32,285 bases of DNA, from IMG/VR virus record IMGVR_UViG_2728369188_000005; one strand, given 5' to 3'. The notes beneath the pieces are model-generated. The model was not told the origin of the DNA and made no database searches. It was given only the letters and a program-made list of their open reading frames with translations. The position numbers were made by a program, and so were the translations under genes. Positions 4,914 through 31,950 of this stretch are shown piece by piece (within the stretch, counting starts at the first letter, position 1; every line of letters begins with the position of its first letter). Origin of the DNA: a virus. Taxonomy: Duplodnaviria > Heunggongvirae > Uroviricota > Caudoviricetes.

Positions 4914-6813
4914 TGCAGCCGGTGCGATAGCTACAGGGCTTTTATCTCTCATTATTCCTGTTCCACTGACGACAGTTCAGTGGGCCAATAAACATTATTA
5001 CCTTCCTAAAGAGTCGTCTTATACCCCGGGGCGGTGGGAAACACTGCCGTTTCAGGTTGGCATCATGAACTGTATGGGCAACGATCTGATTCGCACGGTT
5101 AACCTGATTAAATCTGCCCGTGTTGGTTATACAAAGATGTTGCTGGGAGTGGAGGCTTATTTTATTGAGCATAAATCACGCAACAGCCTTCTTTTTCAGC
5201 CCACGGACTCAGCTGCTGAAGATTTTATGAAATCTCATGTTGAGCCAACGATAAGGGATGTTCCTGCATTGCTGGAGCTGGCTCCATGGTTCGGAAGAAA
5301 ACACCGCGATAATACGCTCACCCTGAAGCGTTTTTCCTCCGGTGTGGGCTTCTGGTGCCTGGGTGGTGCGGCAGCAAAAAACTACCGTGAAAAATCCGTG
5401 GACGTGGTCTGCTATGACGAACTTTCCTCGTTCGAGCCGGATGTCGAAAAAGAGGGCTCGCCAACCCTGCTGGGGGATAAGCGTATTGAGGGCTCGGTAT
5501 GGCCAAAATCCATTCGCGGCTCGACGCCTAAAATAAAAGGCTCCTGCCAGATCGAAAAAGCGGCCAACGAGTCGGCGCATTTCATGCGTTTTTATGTGCC
5601 CTGCCCGCACTGTGGGGAGGCGCAGTATCTGAAATTTGGCGATGAGTCCACGCCTTTTGGCCTTAAATGGGAGAAGGACAGCCCCGAAAGCGTTTTCTAC
5701 CTTTGTGAACATCATGGCTGCGTGATCCATCAGTCTGAGCTTGACCAGAGCAACGGGCGGTGGATCTGCGAAAACACGGGGATGTGGACCCGCGACGGTC
5801 TGACGTTTTTCAGCGCCGCGGATAATGAAATTCCGCCGCCGCGCTCCATCACGTTCCATATCTGGACGGCGTACAGTCCGTTCACCACCTGGGTACAGAT
5901 AGTCTATGACTGGCTGGATGCACTGAAAGATCCCAACGGCCTGAAAACCTTTGTGAACACCACGCTGGGCGAGACCTGGGAAGAGGCCGTGGGCGAAAAA
6001 CTCGATCACCAGGTACTGATGGATAAGGTCGTGCATTACACGGCGGCGGTGCCAGCCCGGGTGGTTTATCTGACGGCGGGCATTGACTCGCAGCGAAACC
6101 GTTTTGAGATGTATGTCTGGGGATGGGCACCGGGAGAGGAAGCTTTTCTGGTGGATAAAATCATCATTATGGGCCGTCCCGATGAGGAAGAGACGCTGTT
6201 ACGTGTGGATGCGGCGATCAACAAAAAATACTGCCATGCAGACGGAACCGAAATGACCATTTCCCGTGTCTGCTGGGACACCGGGGGGATCGATGGTGAA
6301 ATTGTCTATCAGAGGTCAAAAAAACACGGTGTTTTCCGGGTGCTGCCGGTAAAAGGCGCATCTGTCTATGGCAAGCCGGTGATCACCATGCCGAAAACCC
6401 GCAATCAGCGGGGCGTGTATCTGTGTGAAGTGGGGACGGACACCGCAAAAGAAATTCTCTATGCCCGTATGAAAGCCGATCCCACGCCTGCGGATGAAGC
6501 CACGTCGTATGCCATCCGTTTTCCTGATGATCCGGAGATTTTTTCGCAGACAGAGGCGCAGCAACTGGTCGCGGAAGAGCTTGTGGAGAAGTGGGAAAAA
6601 GGAAAGATGCGTCTGCTGTGGGATAACAAAAAGCGGCGTAACGAAGCGCTGGACTGCCTGGTGTATGCCTATGCGGCATTACGTGTGTCCGTGCAACGCT
6701 GGCAGCTTGATCTGGCTGTACTGGCAAAATCCCGGGAAGAAGAGACGACCCGGCCAACCCTTAAAGAACTGGCAGCGAAGCTGTCCGGAGGAGTGAATGG
6801 TTACAGTCGCTGA
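4885..6813 (+). CDS. A: Terminase large subunit gpA, about 642 aa
   Basis: Collinear with lambda gpA throughout (WETLPFQ..., KSARVGY..., ATPase and nuclease regions). Start chosen at ATG 4885 (MISDAQ...), which overlaps the Nu1 3-prime end as in lambda; the ORF track's upstream ATG at 4843 would add 14 aa. Confidence 0.9.
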
Positions 6814-10471: not shown

Positions 10472-10528
10472 CACGTTATCAGGCCACCATGGTGGCCTGA
10501 CTGATTTCTGAATGAAAGGAACTGATTT

Positions 10529-11557
10529 ATGGGATTGTTTACGACCCGCCAGTTACTCGGTTATACCGAACAAAAAGTGAAATTCCGTGCGCTGTTTCTG
10601 GAGCTGTTTTTCCGCCGGACGGTGAATTTCCATACCGAAGAAGTGATGCTGGACAAAATTACCGGAAAAACGCCGGTGGCGGCCTATGTCTCCCCGATCG
10701 TTGAAGGAAAAGTGCTGCGCCATCGTGGTGGTGAAACCCGCGTGTTGCGTCCGGGCTACGTCAAGCCGAAACACGAATTTAATTACCAGCAGGCGGTTGA
10801 GCGCCTTCCCGGTGAAGATCCGGCTCAGCTGAACGACCCGGCCTACCGTCGTCTGCGTATCATCACTGATAACCTCAAACAGGAAGAGCACGCTATTGTG
10901 CAGGTGGAAGAAATGCAGGCGGTGAATGCCGTGCTGTATGGCAAATATACGATGGAAGGAGACCAGTTCGAGAAAATTGAAGTCGATTTTGGCCGATCGA
11001 CGAAGAATAACATCATACAAGGTAGCGGTAAGGAGTGGTCAAAACAGGATCGTGACACGTTCGACCCGACATATGATATCGACCTTTTCTGTGATCAGGC
11101 CAGTGGTCTTGTGAATATTGCCATTATGGACGGTACCGTCTGGCGTCTGCTGAATGGCTTTAAGCTTTTCCGCGAAAAAATGGATACCCGTCGCGGTTCA
11201 AATTCACAACTCGAAACGGCAGTGAAAGATCTGGGCGCAGTGGTATCCTTCAAGGGGTATTACGGCGATCTGGCCATTGTGGTGGCGAAAACGTCTTATG
11301 TGGCAGAGGACGGTACCGAAAAACGTTATCTGCCGGAGGGCACGCTGGTGCTGGGGAATACGGCAGCAGAGGGGATTCGTTGCTATGGAGCCATTAAGGA
11401 TGCACAGGCGTTGTCTGAAGGAGTGGTGGCTTCTTCCCGTTACCCGAAACACTGGCTGACCGTGGGCGATCCGTCCTGTGAATTCACCATGACGCAGTCC
11501 GCGCCGCTGATGGTGCTGCCGGATCCGGATGAGTTTGTGGTGGTACAGGTGAAATAA
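10529..11557 (+). CDS. E: Major capsid protein gpE, 342 aa
   Basis: Collinear with lambda gpE (YVSPIVEGKVLRHRGGE..., GYVKPKHEFN..., EEMQAVNAVLYGKYTM..., C-terminal SAPLMVLPDPDEFVVVQV). Confidence 0.95.
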   Translation: MGLFTTRQLLGYTEQKVKFRALFLELFFRRTVNFHTEEVMLDKITGKTPVAAYVSPIVEGKVLRHRGGETRVLRPGYVKPKHEFNYQQAVERLPGEDPAQLNDPAYRRLRIITDNLKQEEHAIVQVEEMQAVNAVLYGKYTMEGDQFEKIEVDFGRSTKNNIIQGSGKEWSKQDRDTFDPTYDIDLFCDQASGLVNIAIMDGTVWRLLNGFKLFREKMDTRRGSNSQLETAVKDLGAVVSFKGYYGDLAIVVAKTSYVAEDGTEKRYLPEGTLVLGNTAAEGIRCYGAIKDAQALSEGVVASSRYPKHWLTVGDPSCEFTMTQSAPLMVLPDPDEFVVVQVK

Positions 11558-11565
11558 TCCGTGAG

Positions 11566-11593
11566 CGGGGGCGAAATGCCCCCGTGTTTTTTT
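11566..11593 (+). terminator. Intrinsic terminator-like hairpin between E and FI
   Basis: CGGGGGC(11566-11572), loop GAAAT, GCCCCCG(11578-11584), then TGTTTTTTT(11585-11593), immediately after the E stop. Confidence 0.6.
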
Positions 11594-14950: not shown

Positions 14951-17477
14951 TCTTGTTATTGACCTGAGTCTGGATGCTGTCCGTTTCGATGAGCAGATGA
15001 GCCGGGTAAGGCGTCATTTTTCAGGTCTGGATACCGACGCCAGAAAAACCGCCAGTGCTGTTGAACAGGGCCTGAGCCGCCAGGCGCTGGCTGCACAAAA
15101 AGCCGGGATTTCCGTCGGGCAGTATAAAGCGGCCATGCGAACCCTGCCCGCACAGTTTACGGATATCGCCACGCAGCTTGCAGGTGGTCAGAATCCCTGG
15201 CTGATCCTGCTGCAACAGGGCGGTCAGGTGAAGGACTCCTTCGGCGGGATGATCCCCATGTTCAGGGGGCTCGCCGGTGCGATCACCCTGCCGATGGTCG
15301 GGGTCACCTCGCTGGCGGTGGCGACAGGTGCGCTGGTGTACGCCTGGTACCAGGGAGATTCCACGCTTTCAGCGTTTAATAAAACCCTGGTTCTTTCCGG
15401 TAATCAGTCCGGACTGACTGCCGATCGTATGCTGACTCTCTCAAGAGCCGGGCAGGCAGCAGGACTGACGTTTAACCAGGCGAGAGAGTCACTGGCAGCC
15501 CTGGTGAATGCCGGTGTGCGTGGTGGTGAACAGTTTGATGCCATCAACCAGAGTGTCGCGCGTTTTGCGTCTGCATCCGGTGTGGAGGTGGATAAAGTCG
15601 CTGAAGCCTTCGGGAAGCTGACCACTGACCCGACGTCGGGACTGATGGCGATGGCGCGCCAGTTCCGTAACGTGACGGCAGAGCAGATTGCGTATGTTGC
15701 ACAGCTGCAGCGTTCCGGAGACGAGGCCGGGGCATTGCAGGCGGCGAACGATATCGCCACGAAAGGCTTTGATGAGCAGACCCGTCGCCTGAAAGAAAAC
15801 ATGGGAACACTGGAGACCTGGGCGGATAAAACAGGGAAGGCATTCAAATCGATGTGGGATGCCATTCTGGATATCGGTCGTCCGGAATCCTCAGCGGATA
15901 TGCTCGCCAGTGCGCAGAAGGCATTTGATGAGGCGGATAAAAAATGGCAGTGGTACCAGAGCCGGAGCCAGCGCCGGGGAAAGACCTCCTCTTTTCGTGC
16001 GAACCTTCAGGGGGCATGGGATGACCGGGAAAATGCCCGTCTGGGTCTGGCAGCGGCCACGCTGCAGTCGGATATGGAAAAAGCCGGTGAACTGGCGGCA
16101 AGGGACCGGGCTGAGCGTGAGGCGTCACAGCTGAAGTATACCGGAGAGGCGCAGAAGGCGTATGAGCGCCTGCAGACGCCGCTGGATAAATATACCGCCC
16201 GTCAGAAAGAGCTGAATAAGGCCCTGAAAGACGGAAAAATCCTGCAGGCGGATTACAACACGCTGATGGCGTCGGCAAAAAAGGATTATGAATCGACGCT
16301 GAAAAAGCCGTCAGGTGTGAAGGTGTCTGCCGGTGAGCGCCAGGAAGACCGGGCGCATGCAGCCATGCTGGCGCTTGAAACCGAGCTCAGGACGCTGGAA
16401 AAACACAGCGGTGTGAATGAGAAAATCAGCCGGCAGCGCCGGGATTTATGGGAAGCGGAAAATCAGTATGTGGTCCTGAAAGAGGCCGCCACGAAACGGC
16501 AGTTATCTGAGCAGGAAAAATCCCTGCTGGCCCATGAGAAAGAAACGCTGGAGTACAAACGCCAGCTGGCTGAGCTGGGCGACAAGATTGAACACCAGAA
16601 ACGGCTGAATGAGCTGGCACAGCAGGCGGCGCGGTTTGAACAGCAGCAGAGCGCGAAGCAGGCGGCAATCAGCGCAAAAGCCCGCGGACTCACCGACCGT
16701 CAGGCGCAGCGGGAGTCGGAAGAGCAGCGCCTTCGTGAGGTGTACGGTGATAATCCGGCTGCGCTGGCGAAGGCCACATCTGCACTGAAGAACACCTGGT
16801 CTGCGGAGGAGCAGCTTCGTGGAAGCTGGATGGCCGGGATGAAGTCCGGCTGGGGCGAGTGGGCGGAAAGTGCGACGGACAGTTTTTCGCAGGTTAAAAA
16901 CGCGGCCACGCAGACCTTTGACGGTATTGCACAGAATATGGCAGCGATGCTGACCGGCAGCGAACAGAACTGGCGTGGTTTCACCCGTTCTGTGCTGTCC
17001 ATGCTGACAGAGATTTTTCTGAAGCAGGCGATGGTGGGGATAGTCGGGAGTATCGGCAGCGCATCCGCGTCAGGCGGTACAGCCATTCAGGCTGCGGCGG
17101 CGAACTTCCATTTCGCGACCGGGGGATTTACGGGGACGGGGGGTAAATATGAACCTGCGGGGATTGTTCATCGCGGGGAGTTTGTCTTCACGAAGGAGGC
17201 GACCAGCCGGATTGGTGTCGGCAATCTGTACCGCCTGATGCGGGGCTATGCGGAAGGTGGTTATGTCGGCGGTGCCGGAAGTCCGGCGCAGATGCGGCGG
17301 GCGGAAGGCATTAATTTTAATCAGAACAATCACGTGGTGATTCAGAACGACAGCATCAACGGACAGGCCGGGCCGCAGCTGATGAAAGCGGTGTATGAGA
17401 TGGCCCGTAAAGGTGCGCAGGATGAGCTCCGGCTGCAGTTGCGTGATGGCGGTCTGTTATCGGGGAGCGGGCGATGA
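14931..17477 (+). CDS. H: Tail tape measure protein gpH, 848 aa
   Basis: Length close to lambda H (853 aa); long alpha-helical, Ala/Gln-rich central region; starts within the T 3-prime end. Confidence 0.95.
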   Translation: MSQPVGDLVIDLSLDAVRFDEQMSRVRRHFSGLDTDARKTASAVEQGLSRQALAAQKAGISVGQYKAAMRTLPAQFTDIATQLAGGQNPWLILLQQGGQVKDSFGGMIPMFRGLAGAITLPMVGVTSLAVATGALVYAWYQGDSTLSAFNKTLVLSGNQSGLTADRMLTLSRAGQAAGLTFNQARESLAALVNAGVRGGEQFDAINQSVARFASASGVEVDKVAEAFGKLTTDPTSGLMAMARQFRNVTAEQIAYVAQLQRSGDEAGALQAANDIATKGFDEQTRRLKENMGTLETWADKTGKAFKSMWDAILDIGRPESSADMLASAQKAFDEADKKWQWYQSRSQRRGKTSSFRANLQGAWDDRENARLGLAAATLQSDMEKAGELAARDRAEREASQLKYTGEAQKAYERLQTPLDKYTARQKELNKALKDGKILQADYNTLMASAKKDYESTLKKPSGVKVSAGERQEDRAHAAMLALETELRTLEKHSGVNEKISRQRRDLWEAENQYVVLKEAATKRQLSEQEKSLLAHEKETLEYKRQLAELGDKIEHQKRLNELAQQAARFEQQQSAKQAAISAKARGLTDRQAQRESEEQRLREVYGDNPAALAKATSALKNTWSAEEQLRGSWMAGMKSGWGEWAESATDSFSQVKNAATQTFDGIAQNMAAMLTGSEQNWRGFTRSVLSMLTEIFLKQAMVGIVGSIGSASASGGTAIQAAAANFHFATGGFTGTGGKYEPAGIVHRGEFVFTKEATSRIGVGNLYRLMRGYAEGGYVGGAGSPAQMRRAEGINFNQNNHVVIQNDSINGQAGPQLMKAVYEMARKGAQDELRLQLRDGGLLSGSGR

Positions 17478-18511: not shown

Positions 18512-19255
18512 ATGACACAGACTGAATCAGCGATTCTGGCGCATGCCCGGCGGTGTGCGCCTGCGGAGTCGTGCGGCTTCGTGATAAGCACGCCGGAGGG
18601 GGAGCGGTATATCCCTTGTGTGAATATTTCCGCAGAGCCGGAGGCGTATTTTCGTATCGCACCGGAAGACTGGCTGCGGGCAGAGATGCAGGGGGAGATT
18701 GTGGCACTGGTCCACAGTCATCCCGGTGGGCTGCCCTGGCTGAGCGAGGCTGACCGGCGGCTGCAGATAAAAAGCGCACTGCCCTGGTGGCTGGTCTGCC
18801 GGGGTGACATTCACAAATTCCGCTGTGTGCCACATCTGACAGGACGGCGCTTTGAGCACGGGGTGACGGACTGTTACACGCTGTTCCGGGATGCTTATCA
18901 TCTGGCGGGGACTGAAATGCCGGATTTTCATCGCGAGGATGACTGGTGGCGCAACGGCCAGAACCTGTACCTGGACAATATGGAGGAAACGGGCTTTTAC
19001 CGGGTGCCCCTGTCCTCTGCACAGGCGGGCGATATTCTGCTGTGCTGCTTTGGTGCTTCGGTACCGAACCATGCCGCCATTTACTGCGGCAACGGTGAGC
19101 TGCTTCACCATCTGCCTGAACAACTGAGTAAACGGGAGAGGTATTCCGAAAAATGGCAACGACGAACGCATTCTGTCTGGCGTCACCGCCACTGGCACGC
19201 ATCTGCCTTCACGGGGATTTACAACGATTTGGCCGCCGCCTCAGCCTGTATGTGA
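18512..19255 (+). CDS. K: Tail assembly protein gpK (JAMM/MPN-like N-terminal part plus NlpC/P60-like C-terminal part), about 247 aa
   Basis: MTQTESAILAHARRCAPAESCGF...VHSHPGG...SEADR contains a JAMM-type HSHP motif; the C-terminal part has an NlpC/P60-like Cys/His arrangement (VTDCYTLFRDAYH). ATG 18512 is 11 nt after the L stop. The 103-nt overlap with I matches the K/I overlap I recall for lambda. Confidence 0.85.
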   Translation: MTQTESAILAHARRCAPAESCGFVISTPEGERYIPCVNISAEPEAYFRIAPEDWLRAEMQGEIVALVHSHPGGLPWLSEADRRLQIKSALPWWLVCRGDIHKFRCVPHLTGRRFEHGVTDCYTLFRDAYHLAGTEMPDFHREDDWWRNGQNLYLDNMEETGFYRVPLSSAQAGDILLCCFGASVPNHAAIYCGNGELLHHLPEQLSKRERYSEKWQRRTHSVWRHRHWHASAFTGIYNDLAAASACM

Positions 19256-19833
19256 ACACGGCAGCGGAAGCCATCCGGGCGCTGTCGTTACAGGTGCCCG
19301 GATTCCGCCGTCAGATGAACGAAGGCTGGTACCAGATACGTATTGCCGGTGAGGACACGGCACCGGAGGCGGTGTATGCCCGCCTTCACGAACAGCTGGG
19401 TGAGGGAACGGTCATCCACATTGTGCCGCGACTGGCCGGTGCCGGAAAGGGCGGACTGCAGATTGTGCTGGGGGCGGCAGCCATCGTGGGCTCTTTCTTC
19501 ACGGCCGGAGGCTCGATGGCGTTATGGGGTACAGCCCTGAGTGCCGGTGGTTTTTCTGCCACCACGATGCTGTTTTCACTGGGTGCCAGTATGATTCTGG
19601 GCGGTGTGGCCCAGATGCTGGCCCCGAAGGCAAAAACACCGGATTACCGCGCAACGGATAACGGTAAACAGAACACGTACTTTTCCTCACTGGACAACAT
19701 GATTGCCCAGGGCAACCCGATGCCGGTGCCCTACGGTGAAATGCTGGTTGGTTCACGACGTATCTCTCAGGACATCAGCACCCGTGATGAAGGCGGGGGC
19801 GGAAAGGTGGTGGTTATTGGTCGACAGGGATAA
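19153..19833 (+). CDS. I: Tail assembly protein gpI, 226 aa
   Basis: ARICLHGDLQRFGRR..., IHIVPRLAGAG..., KQNTYFSSLDNMIAQGNPMPVPYGEM is lambda I-like. Confidence 0.9.
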   Translation: MATTNAFCLASPPLARICLHGDLQRFGRRLSLYVNTAAEAIRALSLQVPGFRRQMNEGWYQIRIAGEDTAPEAVYARLHEQLGEGTVIHIVPRLAGAGKGGLQIVLGAAAIVGSFFTAGGSMALWGTALSAGGFSATTMLFSLGASMILGGVAQMLAPKAKTPDYRATDNGKQNTYFSSLDNMIAQGNPMPVPYGEMLVGSRRISQDISTRDEGGGGKVVVIGRQG

Positions 19834-19846
19834 AACATAAAAAAAT

Positions 19847-19871
19847 CCCGCAGTGATCGCGGAGCTGCGGG
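19847..19871 (-). terminator. Hairpin with U run on the minus strand (minus-strand terminator-like)
   Basis: CCCGCAG(19847-19853), 11-nt loop, CTGCGGG(19865-19871). On the minus strand the hairpin is followed by ATTTTTTTATGTTTT (complement of 19833-19846). Confidence 0.4.
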
Positions 19872-20037
19872 GACAGACAAATGAAGATTAATGTTAAGGA
19901 GTTGTTTTGGTTACTCGGGCAAAAAAACACTAACGCAGCGAAATTATAAGCGCCACAGTCAGTGTGTGAAAATGTGAAGATATTCAGAATTTTTATGCCA
20001 TTACCGGTTTTAACCAACAGGATTATCGGTGGGCATG

Positions 20038-20107
20038 AAAGAAAACCCCGGTATCTGCTGATACCGGGGTTTCTCTTTAGCATGGCAGAAATGTGTTTCA
20101 TGCTTTT
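20038..20107 (-). ncRNA. Candidate small RNA of about 70 nt (hypothetical)
   Basis: Minus-strand reading gives a sigma70-like promoter (-35 TTGCCA, complement of 20139-20144; 18-nt spacer; -10 TATCCT, complement of 20115-20120), then a 6-bp stem with 14-nt loop (20079-20104) and the 13-bp terminator hairpin with U tract. No plausible ORF. The strand and the existence of a transcript are inferred, not shown. Confidence 0.2.
20043..20078. terminator. Perfect 13-bp palindromic hairpin with U-rich tracts on both sides (bidirectional terminator-like)
   Basis: AAACCCCGGTATC(20043-20055), loop TGCT, GATACCGGGGTTT(20060-20072), followed by CTCTTT on plus; the minus-strand reading is followed by TTTTCTTTC. 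Confidence 0.5.
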
Positions 20108-20175
20108 CGGGCGAAGGATATCCGACTTCTGTACGGAATGGCAAGTGGCGGTTAATTTATTCAGGGGAAGGCTGT

Positions 20176-23100
20176 ATGGGAAAAGGTGGCGGTAAGGCAC
20201 ACACGCCTCGTGAGGCGAAGGATAATCTCAAATCCACGCAGATGATGAGTGTGATTGATGCGATTGGTGAGGGACCGATAGAAGGTCCGGTGAAGGGACT
20301 GCAGAGTATTCTGGTGAACAAAACCCCACTGACGGACACGGACGGCAATCCCGTGATACACGGTGTGACGGCGGTCTGGCGCGCCGGGGAGCAGGAGCAG
20401 ACACCACCGGAAGGCTTTGAGTCCTCCGGAGCTGAAACCGGACTGGGCGTGGAAGTGACGAAGGCAAAACCGGTGACGCGCACCATTACGTCCGCGAACA
20501 TTGACCGCCTGCGGATTACCTTCGGGGTGCAGTCACTGGTGGAGACCACCTCAAAGGGTGACCGTAACCCGGCATCCGTCCGCCTGCTGATTCAGTTACA
20601 GCGTAACGGTAACTGGGTGACAGAAAAGGACGTCACCATTAACGGCAAGACCACCTCACAGTTCCTGGCCTCGGTGATTCTGGATAATCTGCCTCCCCGG
20701 CCCTTTAACATCCGGATGGTCAGGGAGACGGCGGACAGCACCACGGACCAGCTGCAGAATAAGACGCTGTGGTCGTCATACACCGAAATCATCGATGTGA
20801 AACAGTGCTACCCGAACACGGCCATTGTGGGGCTGCAGGTGGATGCGGAGCAGTTCGGCGGCCAGCAGATGACGGTGAACTACCATATCCGCGGTCGCAT
20901 CATCCAGGTGCCGTCAAACTATGACCCGGAAAAACGCACGTACAGTGGTATCTGGGACGGCAGTCTGAAACCGGCATACAGCAACAACCCGGCCTGGTGC
21001 CTGTGGGACATGCTGACTCACCCGCGCTACGGCATGGGAAAACGTCTGGGGGCGGCGGATGTGGACAAGTGGGCGCTGTATGCCATCGGGCAGTACTGCG
21101 ACCAGACGGTCCCGGATGGTTTCGGGGGGACAGAGCCGCGGATGACCTTTAATGCGTACCTGGCACAACAGCGTAAGGCGTGGGACGTTCTCAGTGATTT
21201 CTGCTCTGCGATGCGCTGTATGCCGGTATGGAACGGTCAGACGCTGACGTTCGTTCAGGACCGCCCGTCGGATGTGGTGTGGCCGTACACCAACAGCGAT
21301 GTGGTGGTGGATGATAACGGCGTGGGATTCCGCTACAGCTTCAGTGCCCTGAAGGACCGGCACACGGCGGTGGAGGTGAATTACACCGACCCGCAGAACG
21401 GCTGGCAGACCTCCACGGAACTGGTGGAAGACCCGGAAGCCATACTGCGCTACGGACGCAACCTGCTGAAGATGGACGCGTTCGGCTGTACCAGCCGCGG
21501 TCAGGCCCACCGTGCCGGACTGTGGGTGATAAAGACCGAACTGCTGGAAACGCAGACGGTGGATTTCACGCTCGGGTCTCAGGGGCTGCGGCACACACCC
21601 GGTGACATTATTGAAATCTGTGATAATGACTATGCCGGGACCCTGACCGGCGGACGTGTCCTGTCCATTGATGCTGCCACCCGCACCCTGACGCTGGACC
21701 GTGAGGTTACCCTGCCGGAGACAGGTACATCGGCGGTGAACCTGATTAACGGCAGCGGTAAGCCGGTGAGTGTGGACATCACCGCACACCCCGCGCCGGA
21801 CCGGATACAGGTCAGTACCCTGCCTGATGGTGTGGAGACATACGGGGTGTGGGGACTCTCCCTGCCGTCACTGCGCCGTCGCCTGTTCCGCTGTGTCTCC
21901 ATCCGGGAAAACACGGACGGCACCTTTGCCATCACGGCGGTGCAGCACGTACCGGAAAAAGAAGCCATCGTGGATAACGGTGCCCGCTTTGAGCCGCAGT
22001 CAGGCTCCCTGAACAGCGTCATCCCACCGGCAGTGCAGCACCTGACGGTGGAGGTGAGCGCAGCTGACGGCCAGTATCTGGCACAGGCGAAATGGGACAC
22101 GCCGCGGGTGGTGAAGGGGGTGCGCTTCAGTCTGCGACTGACCAGCGGAAGCGGAGAAGACAGCCGTCTGGTGACCACCGCTATCACTGCGGATACAGAG
22201 CATCGTTTCAGTGGTCTGCCGCTCGGGGAATACACCCTGACAGTCAGGGCAATTAACAGTTATGGCCAGCAGGGCGAACCGGCCACCACCACCTTCCGGA
22301 TTAACGCGCCAGCAAAACCCGCCACCATTGAACTGACGCCGGGGTATTTTCAGATAACAGCGGTACCGGTGCTGGCGGTGTATGACCCGACGGTACAGTT
22401 TGAATTCTGGTTCTCAGAAAAACGCATCACGAACACGGCACAGGTGGAAAAATCTGCCCGTTATCTGGGGACTGGCAGTCAGTGGACTGTCTCCGGCCCG
22501 CACATTAAGCCCGGGAAGGATTTCTGGTTTTATGTACGCAGCGTTAACCTGGTGGGGAAATCTGCTTTTGTTGAAGCCAGTGGACGGGCCAGCAATGATG
22601 CAGAAGGGTATCTGGGGCTGTTTCGGGAAAAAATAGGAAAACTGCATCTGGCTCAGGGGCTGTGGGAGCTGATAGACAACAGCCAGCTTGCGGATGAGAT
22701 GGCGGAGATGAAGACCACCATCACCGAAACCCGCAATGAAATCACACAGACGGTCAGTAAAACGCTGGAGGACCAGAGCGCCACCATACAGCAGATACAG
22801 CGCGTGCAGAAGGACACAAATGATGACCTTGCTGCACTTTACATGCTGAAGGTACAGAAAACAAAAAATGGCATACCCTATGTTGCCGGTATTGGAGCGG
22901 GGATTGAGGATACTGATGGCCAGCCCCTGAGCAACATACTGCTGCTGGCTGACCGTATTGCGATGATTAACCCGGAGGACGGCAACACCACGCCGTTATT
23001 TGTGGCGCAGGGGAATCAGTTGTTCATGAACGATGTGTTCCTGAAGCGGCTGTTTGCGGTGAGTATCACCTCGTCCGGCAATCCCCCGACGTTTTCCCTG

Positions 23101-23649
23101 ACGCCGGAGGGCAGGCTGACCGCAAGAAATGCTGATATCAGCGGTAACGTGAATGCGAACTCCGGGACGCTCAACAACGTCACGATTAACGAGAACTGTC
23201 GGGTTCTGGGAAAATTGTCCGCCAACCAGATTGAAGGCGATCTCGTTAAAACAGTGGGCAAAGCTTTCCCCCGGGACTCCCGTGCACCGGAGCGGTGGCC
23301 ATCAGGGACCATTACCGTCAGGGTTTATGACGATCAGCCGTTTGACCGGCAAATTGTTATTCCGGCGGTGGCATTCAGTGGCGCTAAGCATGAGAGAGAG
23401 CATACTGATATTTACTCCTCATGCCGTCTGATAGTGCGGAAAAACGGTGCTGAAATTTATAACCGTACCGCGCTGGATAATACGCTGATTTACAGTGGTG
23501 TTATTGATATGCCTGCCGGTCACGGTCACATGACGCTGGAGTTTTCGGTGTCAGCATGGCTGGTGAATAACTGGTATCCCACAGCAAGTATCAGCGATTT
23601 GCTGGTTGTTGTGATGAAGAAAGCCACTGCAGGCATCACGATTAGCTGA
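20176..23649 (+). CDS. J: Host specificity protein / central tail fibre gpJ, 1157 aa
   Basis: Collinear with lambda J (1132 aa) from [21 protein letters not shown]... through the fibronectin-like repeats to a C-terminal receptor-binding region ending ...[25 protein letters not shown]. Confidence 0.95.
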
Positions 23650-23668
23650 ATTTTATAACCCAGATACG

Positions 23669-23692
23669 GGCGCCAGAAATGGCGCCTTTTTT
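23669..23692 (+). terminator. Intrinsic terminator after J
   Basis: GGCGCCA(23669-23675), loop GAAA, TGGCGCC(23680-23686), then TTTTTT(23687-23692). The second copy at 26727-26750 keeps the structure through compensatory changes. Confidence 0.7.
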
Positions 23693-23716
23693 ATTGCAGA
23701 AAAGCGAGAGGTAATT

Positions 23717-24316
23717 ATGCGTAAATTATGTGCTGTTATTCTGTCCACAGTAGTCTGGCTGGTCGCCGCTGGTACGCCAGCGAGCGCAGCAGAGCATCAG
23801 TCCACACTAAGCGCGGGGTATCTTCATGCCCGTACGAACGCTCCCGGCAGCGATAATCTGAACGGGATTAACGTGAAATACCGTTATGAGTTTACGGACG
23901 CGCTGGGGCTGATTACGTCCTTCAGTTATGCCAATGCTGAGGATAAGCAAAAAACGCACTACAGCGATACCCGCTGGCATGAAGATTCCGTGCGTAACCG
24001 CTGGTTCAGCGTGATGGCGGGGCCGTCTGTGCGCGTGAATGAATGGTTCAGCGCGTATGTGATGGCGGGTATGGCTTACAGCCGTGTGTCGACTTTCTCC
24101 GGGGATTATCTCCGCGTAACTGACAACAAGGGGAAAAAGCACGATGTGCTGACCGGAAGTGATGACGGTCGCCACAGCAACACGTCTCTGGCGTGGGGGG
24201 CTGGCGTGCAGTTTAACCCGACCGAATCCGTGGCCATTGATATTGCTTATGAAGGCTCCGGCAGTGGCGACTGGCGCACTGACGGTTTCATCGTGGGTGT
24301 CGGTTATAAGTTCTGA
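23717..24316 (+). CDS. lom: Lom outer-membrane protein (Ail/Lom family beta-barrel), 199 aa
   Basis: Signal peptide (MRKLCAVILSTVVWLVAAGTPASA) followed by alternating beta-strand sequence ending in the C-terminal aromatic GYKF; lambda lom position directly after J. GAGAGG Shine-Dalgarno. Confidence 0.9.
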   Translation: MRKLCAVILSTVVWLVAAGTPASAAEHQSTLSAGYLHARTNAPGSDNLNGINVKYRYEFTDALGLITSFSYANAEDKQKTHYSDTRWHEDSVRNRWFSVMAGPSVRVNEWFSAYVMAGMAYSRVSTFSGDYLRVTDNKGKKHDVLTGSDDGRHSNTSLAWGAGVQFNPTESVAIDIAYEGSGSGDWRTDGFIVGVGYKF

Positions 24317-24342
24317 TTAGCCAGGTAACACAGTGTTATGAC

Positions 24343-24369
24343 AGCCCGCCGGTTCAGGCGGGCTTTTTT
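24343..24369 (+). terminator. Intrinsic terminator after lom
   Basis: AGCCCGCC(24343-24350), loop GGTTCA, GGCGGGCT(24357-24364), then TTTTT(24365-24369). Confidence 0.65.
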
Positions 24370-24380
24370 GTGGAGTGGAT

Positions 24381-24390
24381 NNNNNNNNNN
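24381..24390. other. Assembly gap (10 N)
   Basis: Run of n. Sequence before the gap ends at the stf 5-prime leader (GTGGAGTGGAT); sequence after it resumes in the middle of a J homologue. Confidence 0.95.
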
Positions 24391-26707
24391 CTTCAGCGCC
24401 CTGAAGGACCGCCATAATGCCGTTGAGGTGAACTGGATTGACCCGAACAACGGCTGGGAGACGGCGACAGAGCTTGTTGAAGATACGCAGGCCATTGCCC
24501 GTTACGGTCGTAATGTCACGAAGATGGATGCCTTTGGCTGTACCAGCCGGGGGCAGGCACACCGCGCCGGGCTGTGGCTGATTAAAACGGAACTGCTGGA
24601 AACGCAGACCGTGGATTTCAGCGTGGGCGCAGAAGGGCTTCGCCATGTGCCGGGCGATGTTATTGAAATCTGCGATGATGACTATGCCGGTATCAGCACC
24701 GGTGGTCGCGTGCTGGCGGTGAACAGCCAGACCCGGACGCTGACTCTCGACCGTGAAATCACGCTGCCATCCTCCGGTACCACGCTGATAAGCCTGGTTG
24801 ACGGAAGTGGCAATCCGGTCAGCGTGGAGGTTCAGTCCGTCACCGACGGCGTGAAGGTAAAAGTGAGCCGTGTTCCTGACGGTGTTGCTGAATACAGCGT
24901 ATGGGGGCTGAAGCTGCCGACGCTGCGCCAGCGACTGTTCCGCTGCGTGAGTATCCGTGAGAACGACGACGGCACGTATGCCATCACCGCCGTGCAGCAT
25001 GTGCCGGAAAAAGAGGCCATCGTGGATAACGGGGCGCACTTTGACGGCGAACAGAGTGGCACGGTGAATGGTGTCACGCCGCCAGCGGTGCAGCACCTGA
25101 CCGCAGAAGTCACTGCAGACAGCGGGGAATATCAGGTGCTGGCGCGATGGGACACACCGAAGGTGGTGAAGGGCGTGAGCTTCCTGCTTCGCCTGACCGT
25201 GGCAGCGGATGACGGCAGTGAGCGGCTGGTCAGCACGGCCCGGACGACGGAAACCACATACCGCTTCACGCAACTGGCGCTGGGAAACTACAGGCTGACA
25301 GTCCGGGCGGCAAATGCCTGGGGGCAGCAGGGCGATCCGGCATCGGTATCGTTCCGTATTGCCGCACCGGCAGCGCCGTCGCGGATTGAGCTGACGCCGG
25401 GCTATTTTCAGATAACCGCCACGCCCCATCTTGCCGTTTATGATCCGACGGTACAGTTTGAGTTCTGGTTCTCGGAAAAGCGGATTGCGGATATCAGGCA
25501 GGTTGAAACCACAGCCCGCTATCTTGGCACGGCGCTGTACTGGATAGCTGCCAGTATCAATATCAAACCGGGCCATGATTATTATTTTTACATCCGCAGT
25601 GTGAACACCGTTGGCAAATCGGCATTTGTGGAGGCTGTTGGCCAGCCGAGTGATGATGCATCCGGCTATCTGGATTTTTTCAAAGGCGAGATAGGGAAAA
25701 GCCATCTGGCTCAGGAGCTGTGGACGCAGATTGATAACGGTCAGCTTGCGCCTGACCTGGCTGAAATCAGGACGTCCATTACGGATGTCAGCAATGAAAT
25801 CACGCAGACCGTCAATAAGAAACTGGAAGACCAGAGTGCGGCAATTCAGCAGATACAGAAGGTTCAGGTTGATACAAATAATAACCTGAACAGCATGTGG
25901 GCTGTGAAGCTGCAGCAGATGCAGGACGGACGCCTTTATATCGCGGGTATTGGTGCCGGTATTGAGAATACCCCTGACGGTATGCAGAGTCAGGTGCTGC
26001 TGGCGGCGGACAGGATTGCGATGATTAATCCTGCGAATGGCAATACAAAGCCGATGTTTGTTGGTCAGGGCGATCAGATATTCATGAACGAAGTGTTCCT
26101 GAAATATCTGACGGCTCCCACCATTACCAGCGGCGGTAATCCTCCGGCATTTTCCCTGACACCGGACGGGCGGCTGACGGCGAAAAATGCCGATATCAGC
26201 GGTAGCGTGAATGCGAACTCCGGGACGCTCAACAACGTCACGATTAACGAGAACTGTCGGGTTCTGGGAAAACTGTCCGCGAACCAGATTGAAGGCGATC
26301 TCGTTAAAACAGTGGGCAAAGCTTTCCCCCGGGACTCCCGTGCACCGGAGCGGTGGCCATCAGGGACCATTACCGTCAGGGTTTATGACGATCAGCCGTT
26401 TGACCGGCAAATTGTTATTCCGGCGGTGGCATTCAGTGGCGCTAAGCATGAGAGAGAGCATACTGATATTTACTCCTCATGCCGTCTGATAGTGCGGAAA
26501 AACGGTGCTGAAATTTATAACCGTACCGCGCTGGATAATACGCTGATTTACAGTGGCGTTATTGATATGCCTGCCGGTCACGGTCACATGACGCTGGAGT
26601 TTTCGGTGTCAGCATGGCTGGTAAATGACTGGTATCCCACAGCAAGTATCAGCGATTTGCTGGTTGTGGTGATGAAGAAAGCCACCGCAGGCATCAGTAT
26701 CAGCTGA
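24391..26707 (+). CDS. J: Second gpJ copy, 5-prime truncated by the gap (C-terminal ~770 aa present), diverged from copy 1
   Basis: Begins [31 protein letters not shown]..., which aligns with J copy 1 from about residue 385. Roughly 70-80% identical by eye through most of its length, but nearly identical over the last ~500 nt (26206-26620 versus 23148-23560). Confidence 0.85.
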
Positions 26708-26726
26708 ATTTTATAACCCCAATACG

Positions 26727-26750
26727 GGCGTCAGAAATGACGCCTTTTTT
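26727..26750 (+). terminator. Intrinsic terminator after J copy 2
   Basis: GGCGTCA(26727-26733), loop GAAA, TGACGCC(26738-26744), then TTTTTT. Differs from copy 1 by a compensatory pair (C to T in the left arm, G to A in the right arm). Confidence 0.7.
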
Positions 26751-26774
26751 ATTGCAGAAAAGCGAGAGGTAATT

Positions 26775-27374
26775 ATGCGTAAATTATGTGCTGTTATTCT
26801 GTCCACAGTAGTCTGGCTGGTCGCCGCTGGTACGCCAGCGAGCGCAGCAGAGCATCAGTCCACACTAAGCGCCGGGTATCTTCAGACCCATACTGATATG
26901 CCCGGCAACGATGACCTGAAGGGCATTAACGTGAAATACCGTTATGAATTTACGGACACGCTGGGGCTGGTGACGTCATTCAGTTATGCCAATGCCAAAG
27001 ATGAGCAAAAAACGCATTACAGCGATACCCGCTGGCATGAAGATTCAGTGCGTAACCGCTGGTTCAGCATGATGGCGGGGCCGTCTGTACGCGTGAATGA
27101 ATGGTTCAGTGCTTATGCGATGGCAGGTGTGGCTTACAGCCGTGTTTCGACTTTTTCCGGGGATTATCTCCGCGTAACTGACAGCAAGGGGAAAACGCAC
27201 GATGTGCTGACCGGAAGTGATGACGGTCGCCACAGCAACACGTCTCTGGCGTGGGGGGCTGGCGTGCAGTTTAACCCGACCGAATCCGTGGCCATTGATA
27301 TTGCTTATGAAGGCTCCGGCAGTGGTGACTGGCGCACTGACGGTTTCATCGTGGGTGTCGGTTATAAATTCTGA
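26775..27374 (+). CDS. lom: Lom outer-membrane protein, second copy, 199 aa
   Basis: About 90% identical by eye to lom copy 1 (differences include HARTNAPGSDNLNG versus QTHTDMPGNDDLKG); same signal peptide and C-terminus. Confidence 0.9.
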   Translation: MRKLCAVILSTVVWLVAAGTPASAAEHQSTLSAGYLQTHTDMPGNDDLKGINVKYRYEFTDTLGLVTSFSYANAKDEQKTHYSDTRWHEDSVRNRWFSMMAGPSVRVNEWFSAYAMAGVAYSRVSTFSGDYLRVTDSKGKTHDVLTGSDDGRHSNTSLAWGAGVQFNPTESVAIDIAYEGSGSGDWRTDGFIVGVGYKF

Positions 27375-27400
27375 TTAGCCAGGTAACACAGTGTTATGAC

Positions 27401-27427
27401 AGCCCGCCGGTTCAGGCGGGCTTTTTT
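27401..27427 (+). terminator. Intrinsic terminator after lom copy 2
   Basis: Same AGCCCGCC / GGCGGGCT hairpin and T run as after lom copy 1. Confidence 0.65.
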
Positions 27428-27438
27428 GTGGAGTGGAT

Positions 27439-29846
27439 ATGGCAGCAGTAAAAATCTCAGGTGTGCTGAAAGATGGTGCGGGAAAACCAATACAGAACTG
27501 CACTATTCAACTGAAGGCAAAGCGTAACAGCACCACGGTACTGGTGAACACGGTGGCCTCTGAAAATCCTGATGAAGCCGGGCGTTACAGCATGGATGTT
27601 GAGTATGGCCAGTACAGCGTCACCCTGCTGGTTGAAGGTTNNNNNNNNNNNNNNNNNNNNNNNNNNNNNNNNNNNNNNNNNNNNNNNNNNNNNNNNNNNN
27701 NNNNNNNNNTTCCAGACCAGGTACGCTGAATGATTTTCTCGGTGCCATGACGGAGGATGATGTCCGACCGGAGGCACTGCGCCGCTTTGAGCAGATGGTG
27801 GAAGAAGCGGCACGCAACGCTGAAGCCGCCTCTCAGAGCGCAGCGGCGGCAAAGAAATCCGAAACTGCAGCGGCATCATCGAAGAACGCGGCGAAAACCT
27901 CAGAAACGAATGCAGCTAATAGTGCACAGGCGGCAGCGACCTCAAAGACTGCATCGGCAAACTCCGCGACAGCAGCCAAAAAATCAGAAACCAACGCGAA
28001 AAATAGCGAGACAGCCGCAAAGACGAGCGAAACCAACGCAAAGTCCAGCCAGACGGCAGCGAAAACCAGCGAAACGAATGCCAAAGCCAGTGAAACTGCG
28101 GCAAAAAACAGCCAGGTTGCAGCAGCCCAAAGCGAGAGCGCGGCAGCCGGTTCTGCGACTTCAGCAGCTGGATCAGCAACTGCTGCAGCTAACAGCCAGA
28201 AAGCAGCGAAGACGAGCGAAACTAACGCAAAGTCCAGCCAGACGGCAGCGAAGACCAGCGAAACGAATGCCAAAGCCAGCGAAACTGCGGCGAAAAACAG
28301 CCAGGTTGCAGCAGCCCAAAGCGAGAGCGCGGCAGTTGGTTCTGCAAGCGCGGCGGCTGCTTCTGCCACTGCATCAGCCAACAGTCAAAAAGCGGCAAAA
28401 ACCAGTGAAACCAATGCAAAGACAAGCGAGACTGCAGCGGCCAACTCGGCGAAAGCATCCGCTGCAAACCAGACCGCTGCAAAAGCAAGTGAAGACGCAG
28501 CCAGAGAGTATGCAAGCCAGGCAGCAGATCCGTATAAATATGTCTTACAGCCGCTGCCTGATGTGTGGATACCGTTTAACGATTCACTGGATATGATTAC
28601 GGGCTTTTCGCCATCATATAAAAAGATTGTTATTGGTGACGACGAAATAACGATGCCTGGCGACAAGATTGTTAAGTTTAAACGTGCATCGAAAGCAACC
28701 TATATTAACAAATCTGGTGTGCTGACAGAGGCTGCCATTGATGAGCCACGATTTGAACGTGATGGCCTGCTTATTGAGGGGCAAAGAACTAATCTTCTGC
28801 TTAATTCAACAAATCCATCTAAATGGAATAAGTCAGGCAATCTGGAACTCACAGAAATATCCACGGATTCTTTTAATTTTACTTATGGGAGATTTACTGT
28901 AAAAGATACTCTTATTGGTCAGACAAGTGCTATTAATATCGTAACGGTTTCTGGCAGTAAAGGGTTTGATGTCACAGGTGATGAAAAATATGTGACCATT
29001 TCATGCCGTGTAAGAAGTGATGTTGAAAATGTAAGGTGTCGTTTAAGATTTGAACACCATGATGGTTATACTTACACTTTTTTGGGAGATGCTTACCTCA
29101 ATTTATCAACACTTGTAATTGATAAAGCTGGTACTGCTGCAGACCGTATTATTGCAAAGGCTGTAAAAGATGAGGTTACTGGTTGGATTTTCTATCAGGC
29201 TACAATTAATGCACTAGATACAGAGAGCATGATTGGTGCGATGGTTCAATACGCTCCTGTAAAAGGTTCAGGCACAGCATCTGGAGACTATCTGGATATC
29301 GCAACTCCACAAGTGGAAGGTGGATCAAGTGCTTCGTCATTTATTGTAACTGATATAACTGCAAGCACTCGCGCAAGCGATATGGTGACAGTCCCAATCA
29401 AGAATAACCTTTATAATCTTCCTTTTACGGTTCTTTGTGAGGTACATAAGAACTGGTATAAAACGCCAAATGCAGCACCGCGTGTTTTTGATACCGGCGG
29501 TCATCAAACCGGAGCGGCTATTATTCTTGGCTTCGGTCGTTCAACAGATTACGACGGATTTCCTTATTGTGATATAGGTTTGGCTAACAGACGGGTAAAC
29601 GAAAACGCATCGCTTGAAAAAATGGTTATGGGGATGCGTGTAAAGTCAGATCAGTCTACGTGCTCAGTAAGTAACGGGCGTATATCCAGCGAAAAGAAAG
29701 CCACATGGTCCTATATTCAGAACTCCGCAATTATCCGTATTGGAGGCCAGACTACAGCCGGGTTACGTCATTTATTTGGTCATGTCAGGAATTTCAGAAT
29801 ATGGCACAAGGCATTGACTGATGCTCAGATGGGGGAGTCAATCTAA
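27439..29846 (+). CDS. stf: Side tail fibre protein Stf, interrupted by the N gap at 27641-27709
   Basis: N-terminus MAAVKISGVLKDGAGKPIQNCTIQLKAKRNSTTVLVNTVASENPDEAGRYSMDVEYGQYSVTLLVEG matches lambda Stf. After the gap the frame continues ...PGTLNDFLGAMTEDDVRPEALRRFEQMVEE..., then an Ala/Ser/Thr-rich repeat shaft and a ~430-aa C-terminal domain. True length and frame continuity across the gap are unknown. Confidence 0.85.
27641..27709. other. Assembly gap (69 N) inside stf
   Basis: Run of n. Confidence 0.95.
28018..28395 (+). repeat. Tandem duplication of a 189-bp (63-aa) unit within the stf shaft
   Basis: GACGAGCGAAAC...AGCCAGACGGCAGCG recurs with period 189 nt (28022 and 28211); protein unit AKTSETNAKSSQTAAKTSETNAKASETAAKNSQVAAAQSESAA... 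occurs twice. Confidence 0.7.
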
Positions 29847-30074: not shown

Positions 30075-30172
30075 NNNNNNNNNNNNNNNNNNNNNNNNNN
30101 NNNNNNNNNNNNNNNNNNNNNNNNNNNNNNNNNNNNNNNNNNNNNNNNNNNNNNNNNNNNNNNNNNNNNNNN
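30075..30172. other. Assembly gap (98 N)
   Basis: Run of n. Confidence 0.95.
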
Positions 30173-31416: not shown

Positions 31417-31950
31417 TTAAGCCTTCTTCGGAATCTTTTGTGNNNNNNNNNNNNNNNNNNNNNNNNNNNNNNNNNNNNNNNNNNNNNNNNNNNNNNNNNN
31501 NNNNNNNNNNNNNNNNNNNNNNNNNNNNNNNNNNNNNNNNNNNNNNNNNNNNNNNNNNNNNNNNNNNNNNNNNNNNNNNNNNNNNNNNNNNNNNNNNNNN
31601 NNNNNNNNNNNNNNNNNNNNNNNNNNNNNNNNNNNTTCAAAAACATCATGGCTAATTTTATGTTTAATTTTTGATTCCCCAGCCCTTGTAGATGCCGCGT
31701 TCAGGCTAGCTTCGTTCAAATCCATTAAAGATATCAGACTACTCTCAGGTACGTGAGTAAGATAAAACCCAGTTCCAACACCAATATCCAGATGGTTGTT
31801 ACCTAAATGTTCCAGAAAGTGTGGAAGAAGGTGTTCCTTTGTAGGACATCCCCATGCAAGCCGATTTGATACTCCCAAAACCCACCAGTCATAAAGCTTT
31901 AGGGTAAGTGGTGTGTAAATTTTAGCCCCATCATCTGTGTTTTTTTTCAT
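31417..31950 (-). CDS. Class I SAM-dependent methyltransferase-like protein (minus strand), interrupted by the N gap at 31443-31635
   Basis: Minus-strand ORF whose N-terminal 105 aa (MKKNTDDGAKIYTPLTLKLYDWWVLGVSNRLAWGCPTKEHLLPHFLEHLGNNHLDIGVGTGFYLTHVPESS...) contains a Rossmann motif-I-like LDIGVGTGF. GGTGA Shine-Dalgarno precedes ATG 31950 (alternative ATG 31962). The C-terminal 8 codons after the gap end at the stop at 31417-31419; frame across the gap is unverifiable. Confidence 0.45.
   Translation of the reverse strand: MKKNTDDGAKIYTPLTLKLYDWWVLGVSNRLAWGCPTKEHLLPHFLEHLGNNHLDIGVGTGFYLTHVPESSLISLMDLNEASLNAASTRAGESKIKHKISHDVFEXXXXXXXXXXXXXXXXXXXXXXXXXXXXXXXXXXXXXXXXXXXXXXXXXXXXXXXXXXXXXXXXXQKIPKKA
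31443..31635. other. Assembly gap (193 N)
   Basis: Run of n. Confidence 0.95.

Follow-up and report, generated by a model that had tools for sequence, protein, structure and literature searches.

The tail genes I and J of phage lambda (NC_001416) are separated by exactly 60 bp (15445-15504, between the end of I at 15444 and the start of J at 15505), and the question raised by the prophage in IMG/VR virus record IMGVR_UViG_2728369188_000005 is what fills the longer gap found at the same junction. The whole stretch analysed, hereafter the window, comprises 32,285 nucleotides and carries a lambdoid late operon with terminase, portal, capsid and tail genes. Its I-like open reading frame (ORF) stops at 19833 (TAA, 19831-19833) and the ATG of J lies at 20176, so that the I-J spacer measures 342 bp (19834-20175). 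An earlier reading of the letters alone, the sequence-only reading, had given the same length, had correctly given the lambda gap as about 60 bp and had put the spacer forward as a candidate small RNA (sRNA) locus of the prophage, read from the minus strand. The core of this proposal is borne out, as the spacer contains the gene of the published sRNA PasB, which ends at the very terminator that had been flagged. The spacer is built of two modules, module 1 (19834 to ~20002) and module 2 (~20003-20175). Module 1 can be identified by its sequence as the gene for PasB, an Hfq-dependent sRNA, and the locus is accordingly placed in the family of PasB and EcOnc22-24; it is an already known locus, a further copy of a published prophage sRNA. 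The explanation that best accounts for the whole spacer, and which is very probably correct, is a PasB gene antisense to the tail operon followed by a cis-acting hairpin element upstream of J.

PasB was described among five prophage sRNAs of enteropathogenic Escherichia coli (EPEC) O127:H6 E2348/69 (Pearl Mizrahi et al. 2021, Sci Adv, PMC8550237). In this strain it is an 83-nt RNA encoded on the minus strand (1466343->1466261) of prophage PP6, and its gene sits between E2348C_1436 and E2348C_1437 in the arrangement '(> <) >' (Table S6, PMC8550237). In RefSeq these neighbours are a tail assembly protein (I) and gpJ, respectively. PasB has been validated by Northern blotting with the probe AATCCCGCAGTGATCGCGGAGCT (Table S6, PMC8550237), which matches the window exactly over 23/23 nt at 19844-19866, with 0 matches expected by chance. 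The E2348/69 locus can be aligned base for base with the window from gene I to ~20002, and the published coordinates transferred through this alignment fall at 19921->19839 on the minus strand, with 80/83 nt identical and 3 mismatches in the RNA body. The assignment of the locus to PasB is made because sequence, probe, synteny, strand and terminator all agree. The two copies share strand, I-J position, a terminator with U7 and the promoter region, but they differ in what lies beyond, as in the window the 173-bp module 2 comes after pasB whereas E2348/69 has ~77 bp with a different hairpin in its place. The location between I and J on the strand opposite to the late operon is not peculiar to these two, the same layout being found in 11 E. 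coli loci and in three Sakai prophages.

In E2348/69 the abundance of PasB depends on Hfq, with a log2 fold change between the wild type and delta-hfq RNA-seq of -6.8 under activating and -2.4 under non-activating conditions (Table S2, PMC8550237). Its level is higher in overnight static lysogeny broth (LB) than in Dulbecco's modified Eagle medium (DMEM), and ligation and sequencing of interacting RNAs (RIL-seq) assigned it 37 partners, 30 of which fall in the table's column for coding sequence (CDS) or 5' untranslated region (5'UTR), with PasB nearly always the second RNA in the chimeras (PMC8550237).

The pasB gene of the window occupies 19839..19936 on the minus strand, the predicted primary transcript running from a transcription start site (TSS) at ~19936 to a 3' end at ~19839, and the 83-nt form corresponds to 19921->19839. 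The intrinsic terminator (19839..19871, minus) consists of a 7-bp stem, CCCGCAG/CUGCGGG (19871-19865 / 19853-19847), followed by U7 (19845-19839), in agreement with the minus-strand hairpin and U run that the sequence-only reading had placed at 19847-19871. A U tract of 7 is likewise given for PasB in Table S5 of the original report (PMC8550237). The terminator ends 5 nt from the stop codon of I, with which pasB is convergent. In an RNAalifold analysis of 24 diverse homologues the terminator is the only consensus helix, and it carries one G-C to A-U compensatory change; there was no support for the 5' helix of the single-sequence fold, and the body of PasB is predicted to be mostly unstructured. 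One class of PasB has a CUCCCG/CGGGAG stem in place of the usual one. The alignment of homologous spacers that had been suggested as a search for compensatory changes in the stems thus yields a single changed pair in the terminator, and module 2 offers no sequence variation in which such changes could appear.

Directly 5' of the terminator lies a conserved single-stranded core, 5'-AACUCCUUAACAUUAAUCUUC-3' (19883..19903, minus), which is unpaired in the folds and is the most conserved stretch of the RNA body. It reads AACUCCUUAAC-UUAAUCUUC (19903-19883), includes the anti-Shine-Dalgarno motif CUCCUU and is the probable seed of PasB, judging by its conservation and position. A seed just upstream of the terminator has also been proposed in a preprint that covers the distribution of PasB (Zhu, Shabalina & Storz 2026, bioRxiv 10.64898/2026.05.13.724894).

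The predicted pasB promoter (19943..19970, minus) is composed of a -35 element TTCACA (19970-19965), a 16-nt spacer and a -10 element TATAAT (19948-19943). It matches the sigma-70 consensus at 11/12 positions and is the best such site on either strand in the 20 kb around the spacer. Among 62 unique PasB variants, gathered from E. coli genomes and viral contigs, the -10 at the fixed offset is TATAAT, AATAAT, TATCAT or GATAAT in 55, and the first transcribed bases are GCGUUA in 52. The -35 element drifts (TTCACA, TCCGGC, TTCTGT and others), and the 16-nt spacer occurs in 19 variants. The TSS at 19936 was placed by the position of the -10 element only. An early idea that the 5' end of the RNA pairs competitively with the terminator arm (CUGCG) was dropped, since most of the motif lies upstream of this predicted TSS.

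The sequence-only reading had a different model of the transcript, in which a promoter at 20144..20115 gives rise to an RNA of ~70 or ~270 nt. The promoter-like pair is indeed there (TTGCCA/18/TATCCT, 20115..20144, minus), but it matches the consensus at 9/12 positions, a quality found 6 times in the surrounding 20 kb against 11.5 times expected from shuffles, so that it stands at chance level and is probably a chance match, while the far better TTCACA/16/TATAAT at 19970..19943 had been missed. E2348/69 expresses PasB and has no module 2, and therefore the pair at 20144..20115 is not the PasB promoter. The longer RNA of ~270 nt is also unlikely, since it would need read-through of a hairpin of -27 to -32 kcal/mol followed by UUUUCUUUC. 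The model is thus replaced by the PasB promoter at 19970..19943 and an RNA of ~83-98 nt.

Upstream of the -35 element lies a block, AAATGTGAAGAnnTTCAGAAnTTTTAT (19970..19996), which holds a sequence resembling a binding site for the cAMP receptor protein (CRP), TGTGA-N6-TCAGA (19973-19988). The consensus for CRP is TGTGA-N6-TCACA, and the motif in the window matches 9/10 of its core positions. Its centre lies at about -44.5 from the predicted TSS, compared with -41.5 for a class II-like site. The block is invariant in 12 spacers of 71-100% identity collected by BLAST, the variable positions lying only in the middle of the N6, and its spacing from the RNA start is fixed in nearly all variants. 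Counting of CRP motifs in the window gives 3 against 1.14 expected, a number reached by 11/100 shuffles and hence not significant, and therefore the case for CRP rests on the invariance and the fixed spacing. That the -35 element is degenerate in about one third of the variants counts toward CRP control as well. The level of PasB is raised in LB and lowered in DMEM, which contains glucose, whereas Spf behaves in the opposite way (PMC8550237). This pattern fits control by CRP, but it is confounded with growth phase. Overall, control of the pasB promoter by CRP is possible but doubtful; if true, CRP-cAMP would tie the output of a prophage sRNA to the carbon status of the host. In the locus L102 (~647), an unrelated sequence resembling an insertion sequence (IS) replaces everything upstream of the pasB -35 element.

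The comparison with published sets of prophage sRNAs that the sequence-only reading had called for leads not only to PasB but also to related RNAs of enterohaemorrhagic E. coli (EHEC). EcOnc22, EcOnc23 and EcOnc24 are encoded in the Sakai EHEC O157:H7 prophages Sp15, Sp14 and Sp11, are crosslinked to Hfq, have a length of ~85 nt and are destabilised in delta-hfq (Tree et al. 2014, Mol Cell, PMC4104026, Table S2). Their common Northern probe, starting GGGAGAGAACGATGAAGATTAAC, falls in the I-J spacer of Sp15, where its strand corresponds to the plus strand of the window, and therefore the EcOnc RNA is antisense to the tail operon. The spacers of the three Sakai prophages (Sp15, Sp14 and Sp11) are 240 bp long, are of the type with a short J-proximal part and are 74.7% identical to module 1. 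Because of the probe site, the strand and this identity, EcOnc22, EcOnc23 and EcOnc24 are regarded as diverged homologues of PasB. They resemble the PasB of the window in their position in the I-J spacer, antisense orientation, terminator, conserved core and invariant block upstream of the promoter, but have a different 5' region, a degenerate -35 (TCCGGC) and the short type of spacer. A statement of this link was not found in the PasB literature consulted, where Table S6 gives PasB no EHEC homologue (PMC8550237) and the preprint of Zhu et al. does not mention EcOnc; a 2021 review gives the targets of EcOnc22 as unknown. In the current record NC_002695.2 the printed peaks of EcOnc22-24 lie ~130-160 bp to the J side of the probe site. 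An earlier version of the Sakai record, probably 128 bp shorter, would place these peaks inside the RNA. None of the EcOnc peaks other than 22, 23 and 24 lies in an I-J spacer.

The module 1 family is found at 5545 places in 1814/5426 complete E. coli genomes, a single genome having as many as 11 copies, and its identity ranges from 100% down to ~71%. All full-length PasB-like copies inspected lie between I and J, the sole exception seen being Sakai Sp9 (NC_002695.2, 1794147-1794771), where L-K-I are largely deleted and a PasB-like gene (82% identical) persists upstream of J together with a hairpin of the short type. The annotated CDS ECs_1805 of Sp9 extends into the PasB-like terminator. In another Sakai prophage, Sp6 (NC_002695.2, 1576553-1578208), a regulator/antirepressor moron lies between tail genes. 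A high-stringency BLAST survey thus underestimates the size and diversity of the PasB family, which is present in a third of complete E. coli genomes, and all variants share the seed-like core with its anti-Shine-Dalgarno motif and the invariant CRP-like upstream block. Tail sequence of lambda or E. coli prophages also turned up on short, low-coverage contigs labelled as Streptomyces, Paenibacillus, Pseudomonas, Shewanella, Bradyrhizobium and others (L017, L020-L026, L029, L034, L041-L054), for example 82% lambda J with a 60-bp spacer, or a 100% match to J together with PasB in 'Streptomyces flavalbus'. These contigs are almost certainly contamination or spike-in lambda DNA.

Module 2 (20003..20175) represents the J-proximal part of the spacer in its long form and is absent from E2348/69 and from the Sakai prophages, which have ~76-100 bp with a different hairpin. 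Among the Sakai regions fetched it was not located, the spacers of Sp9, Sp11, Sp14 and Sp15 being of the short type and the stretches around the EcOnc peaks in Sp4 and Sp6 containing no I-J spacer. It is found in 1446/5426 E. coli genomes, where 1442/1451 records have at least 99% identity and the other 9 have 95-99%. Strains in which the long spacer occurs include CFT073, ST131 and O145/O26 PPompW lysogens. It is joined either to PasB of the window type or to PasB of the CFT073 type, which are 81% identical to each other, and therefore recombination has taken place at the module boundary. In the locus L083 (~4697) an IS element with a transposase ORF is inserted in module 2.

The dominant feature of module 2 is a strong hairpin (20038..20078), whose perfect 13-bp arms (20043-20055 / 20060-20072), already recognised in the sequence-only reading, enclose a 4-nt loop and are extended by pairing of the A-rich and U-rich flanks. 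The palindrome folds with -27 to -32 kcal/mol (z of about -7), which was equalled by 0/200 shuffles. It resembles a terminator on both strands, but its U runs are interrupted (UUUCUCUUU on the plus and UUUUCUUUC on the minus strand) and mostly paired with the A-rich flank, and a terminator scanner made no call. The second stem-loop that had been noted at 20079..20104 is present but weak, with 6 bp (AGCATG/CATGCT) and a 14-nt loop. In one natural variant, L152 (~3963), a 47-bp deletion between AGAAA direct repeats removes the palindrome.

Hairpins of unrelated sequence occur at the equivalent place elsewhere. In short-type spacers the ~76-100 bp that take the place of module 2 hold the hairpin CAGGCAyCC-UCCG-GGrUGCCUG followed by UUGUUUUU, with one T-A to C-G compensatory change, and the 60-bp spacer of lambda consists largely of the hairpin at about 15464-15483, AAACCGCC-UGCG-GGCGGUUU followed by UGUCAUUU. 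Other hairpins with T runs are found at this position in an Edwardsiella prophage, a Pantoea prophage and an Enterobacterales metagenome-assembled genome. Since unrelated hairpins with a T run recur at one place upstream of J, they represent a positionally conserved element of lambdoid late operons. The palindrome of the window would be the local version of this element, with PasB inserted between the stop codon of I and the hairpin, as its position in the compared spacers suggests. Both it and the lambda hairpin are GC-rich stem-loops followed by a T run on the late-operon strand and lie upstream of the ribosome-binding site (RBS) of J. They differ in sequence, in the length of the stem (~8 bp in lambda against 13 perfect bp, or ~18 when extended, in the window) and in their distance to the J start, which is ~20 nt in lambda and 97 nt in the window; unlike that of lambda, the hairpin of the window is flanked by T runs on both strands. 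The idea of a cis-acting hairpin before J, which the sequence-only reading had offered as an alternative to an sRNA locus, thereby gains comparative support, as lambda and its relatives keep a hairpin and T run there. In L077 (~4471) and other loci of the short type, 2-4 copies of the 7-nt repeat CAGACAT are found just upstream of the J RBS.

A different cargo is present in a Citrobacter meridianamericanus locus (L036, NZ_JAJJVQ010000003.1, 787-1500), where the I-J spacer is 714 bp long and encodes a Cu/Zn superoxide dismutase, SodC (PF00080, E = 9e-35), on the minus strand, with the usual hairpin AAAACCGCCTCCGGGCGGTTTTGTCGTTT after the SodC gene. This marks the I-J junction as a general site at which morons opposed to the tail operon insert. 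Strong terminator-like hairpins on the plus strand of the window are also found at 10479-10500 and 11565-11585, flanking the ORF 10529..11557 (a capsid gene by position only), and at 23668-23687 between J and lom, which suggests that intra-operon stem-loops at gene junctions form a set with the I-J hairpin.

It is proposed that a sigma-70 promoter of its own (19970..19943) drives transcription of PasB against the direction of the tail operon and that the RNA ends at the terminator abutting the stop codon of I. A hairpin with a U tail and a neighbouring seed is the classic layout of an Hfq-dependent sRNA, and in PasB the terminator hairpin with its U7 tail may serve as the Hfq-binding module and the adjacent single-stranded core as the seed. 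PasB is known as a base-pairing sRNA that acts in trans, and its CUCCUU motif suggests pairing at the ribosome-binding sites of target mRNAs. The hairpin of module 2 most likely acts in cis as an intercistronic RNA element of the late operon and could function as an attenuator, as an insulator against unmodified polymerase or as a stabiliser of mRNA ends. Antitermination by lambda Q lets the modified polymerase pass terminators, and the Q-modified polymerase would likewise read through the hairpin before J. To the published account of PasB the present analysis adds its link to EcOnc22-24, a wider range for the family, a conserved geometry of the promoter with its CRP-like block, the conserved hairpin upstream of J and the uncharacterised, near-clonal module 2. 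The CRP-like block and the hairpin before J provide testable hypotheses on the regulation of PasB and on an element of the lambda late operon.

Several observations weigh against a PasB gene followed by a cis-acting hairpin. The evidence for expression and for binding to Hfq comes from the E2348/69 and Sakai copies, both of which have short spacers, and no common target motif has been reported for PasB (PMC8550237; Zhu et al. preprint). Covariation outside the terminator is minimal in the RNAalifold analysis of the 24 homologues, and the fold of PasB is not unusually stable (z = -1.5). The predicted TSS at 19936 would give an RNA of 98 nt, compared with the 83-85 nt estimated from coverage and Northern blots, a difference that points to processing of the 5' end or to an error in one of the estimates. 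As for the hairpin, a literature search on that of the lambda I-J spacer returned nothing relevant, and the palindrome is deleted in L152 and is therefore dispensable, at least in a prophage.

The explanations that compete with this one differ mainly in what they make of module 2 and of the orientation of pasB. Module 2 could code for a second, undescribed minus-strand sRNA of ~70 nt that runs from ~20108 to ~20036, starting from TTGCCA/18/TATCCT and ending at the palindrome with UUUUCUUUC, which would make the spacer a two-sRNA island. The layout of such an RNA is sRNA-like, in that an A-rich linker joins a 5' stem-loop to a very strong terminator hairpin with a U-rich tail, and module 2 has been kept at 95% identity or more (99% or more in all but 9 records) in 1446 genomes and has recombined onto different types of PasB. 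However, its promoter is a chance-level 9/12 match with the weak -10 TATCCT, most of the U tract is tied up in pairing with the A-rich flank, and there is no match in Rfam above noise. Module 2 shows no sequence variation, and therefore its near-invariance carries no information on the ~70-nt RNA. The hairpin is already explained by its positional equivalence to that of the lambda I-J spacer, a natural variant (L152) lacks the palindrome, and the published sRNA lists checked place no RNA in module 2, E2348/69 and the six Sakai prophage regions being without this module. A second sRNA is thus quite improbable. The broader view that the long spacer is more than PasB and a hairpin, with pasB catabolite-controlled through the CRP-cAMP block and module 2 carrying either a second ~70-nt sRNA (20108->20036, minus) or a regulatory leader of J, is held to be unlikely too. 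PasB itself may on the other hand be mainly cis-acting, its complementarity to the I-J part of the late mRNA leading to pairing or collision during induction and so tuning the expression of J and the tail tip. This would suit a gene that lies antisense to the late operon, that occupies the I-J junction in all full-length loci examined over a range of 71-100% identity, and that converges on I with its terminator only 5 nt from the stop codon. The positional conservation can however be explained if pasB has been inherited together with the flanking tail genes, tail assembly proceeds without PasB in lambda and many relatives, and the 37 RIL-seq partners, 30 of them in the CDS/5'UTR column, are partners in trans, contacted in uninduced cells by an RNA that is typically second in the chimeras (PMC8550237). 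A mainly cis-acting role is therefore given a small probability.

The sequence-only reading had also hinted at an anti-sRNA, with a CA-rich stretch as part of the RNA, which would place the locus in the AgvB/AsxR family and make the stretch a mimic of GcvB targets. The CA-rich run UUCACACACUG exists on the minus strand (19968-19958), and AgvB sponges GcvB by CACAACA, but the run coincides in part with the pasB -35 hexamer and precedes the transcript, and therefore cannot be the seed. AgvB/AsxR and PasB are alike in being short, Hfq-binding RNAs that prophages of pathogenic E. coli encode and whose 5' part varies while the 3' part is conserved. AgvB and AsxR are however 51-60 nt long with a conserved 3' part of ~42 nt, lie in a convergent sRNA pair at the moron site downstream of PR' and have no similarity to PasB by sequence or covariance model, whereas the present locus is in the tail operon, ~17 kb downstream of the lysis genes. 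A comparison with Rfam gave 0 matches at gathering score in the whole window, and a search of 19700-20300 at E<=10 gave only terminator-driven noise (E >= 0.026, far below gathering scores), in which RF02702 and RF02703 (AgvB/AsxR) did not appear. Identity with AgvB/AsxR was rejected on account of locus, size and absent homology, and membership of their family is very improbable. Identity with PasA, PasC or PasD was also rejected, as these are situated elsewhere, in the vicinity of Q, the lysis genes and a gene for sialate esterase. Finally, the spacer might encode a small protein. The sequence-only reading had named the minus-strand ORF 19814..20200 (128 aa) as the sole one across the spacer while considering coding unlikely; this ORF exists, and two others, 19962..20195 on the plus and 20010..20144 on the minus strand, cross parts of the spacer. 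The ORFs extend across the terminator and the palindrome, lack a suitably spaced Shine-Dalgarno sequence and face homologous spacers with many indels that are not multiples of three and with replacement of whole modules; among the matches listed, the only genes that RefSeq annotates over the spacer are flanking tail genes whose annotation extends into the match. The doubt about coding was thus well founded, small-ORF coding was rejected on the palindromes, the frameshifting indels and the module replacement, and it retains hardly any probability.

The PasB gene and the pre-J hairpin thus remain the preferred contents of a spacer best seen as a moron-like insertion between I and J in a lambdoid prophage of PPompW type. 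Over its entire length it shares 99.4% identity with the spacer of the 'PPompW' prophages (phage records LC567818-LC567841, ON416862, ON470597), which are integrated at ompW in Shiga toxin-producing E. coli (STEC). Some PPompW records annotate a CDS across the spacer, as a tail fiber or hypothetical protein, which is probably over-annotation of non-coding DNA. On its left the spacer is flanked by the tail assembly gene I (19153..19833, plus), an ORF with a match to Pfam PF06805 Lambda_tail_I (E = 4.7e-16), whose true start may lie later than 19153 and whose homologous loci are annotated 'tail assembly protein'. On its right lies the tail tip gene J (20176..23649, plus), which matches Pfam GpJ FNIII-A (E = 6.9e-42), is 82% identical to lambda J by tblastn and is preceded by the RBS GGGGAAGG (20164-20171). 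An Ail/Lom domain was found by Pfam downstream of J. The window contains runs of N at 24381-24390, 27641-27709, 30075-30172 and 31443-31635. Straight after the first of these, a gap of 10 N, the 3' two thirds of J and lom (21339-24380) recur at 80% identity as 24391-27438, so that a further fragment of J (24338..26707) and another lom-like ORF (26775..27374) are present. This repeat looks like a scaffold join or mis-join of two different prophage tail regions, or a tandem duplication of J-lom.

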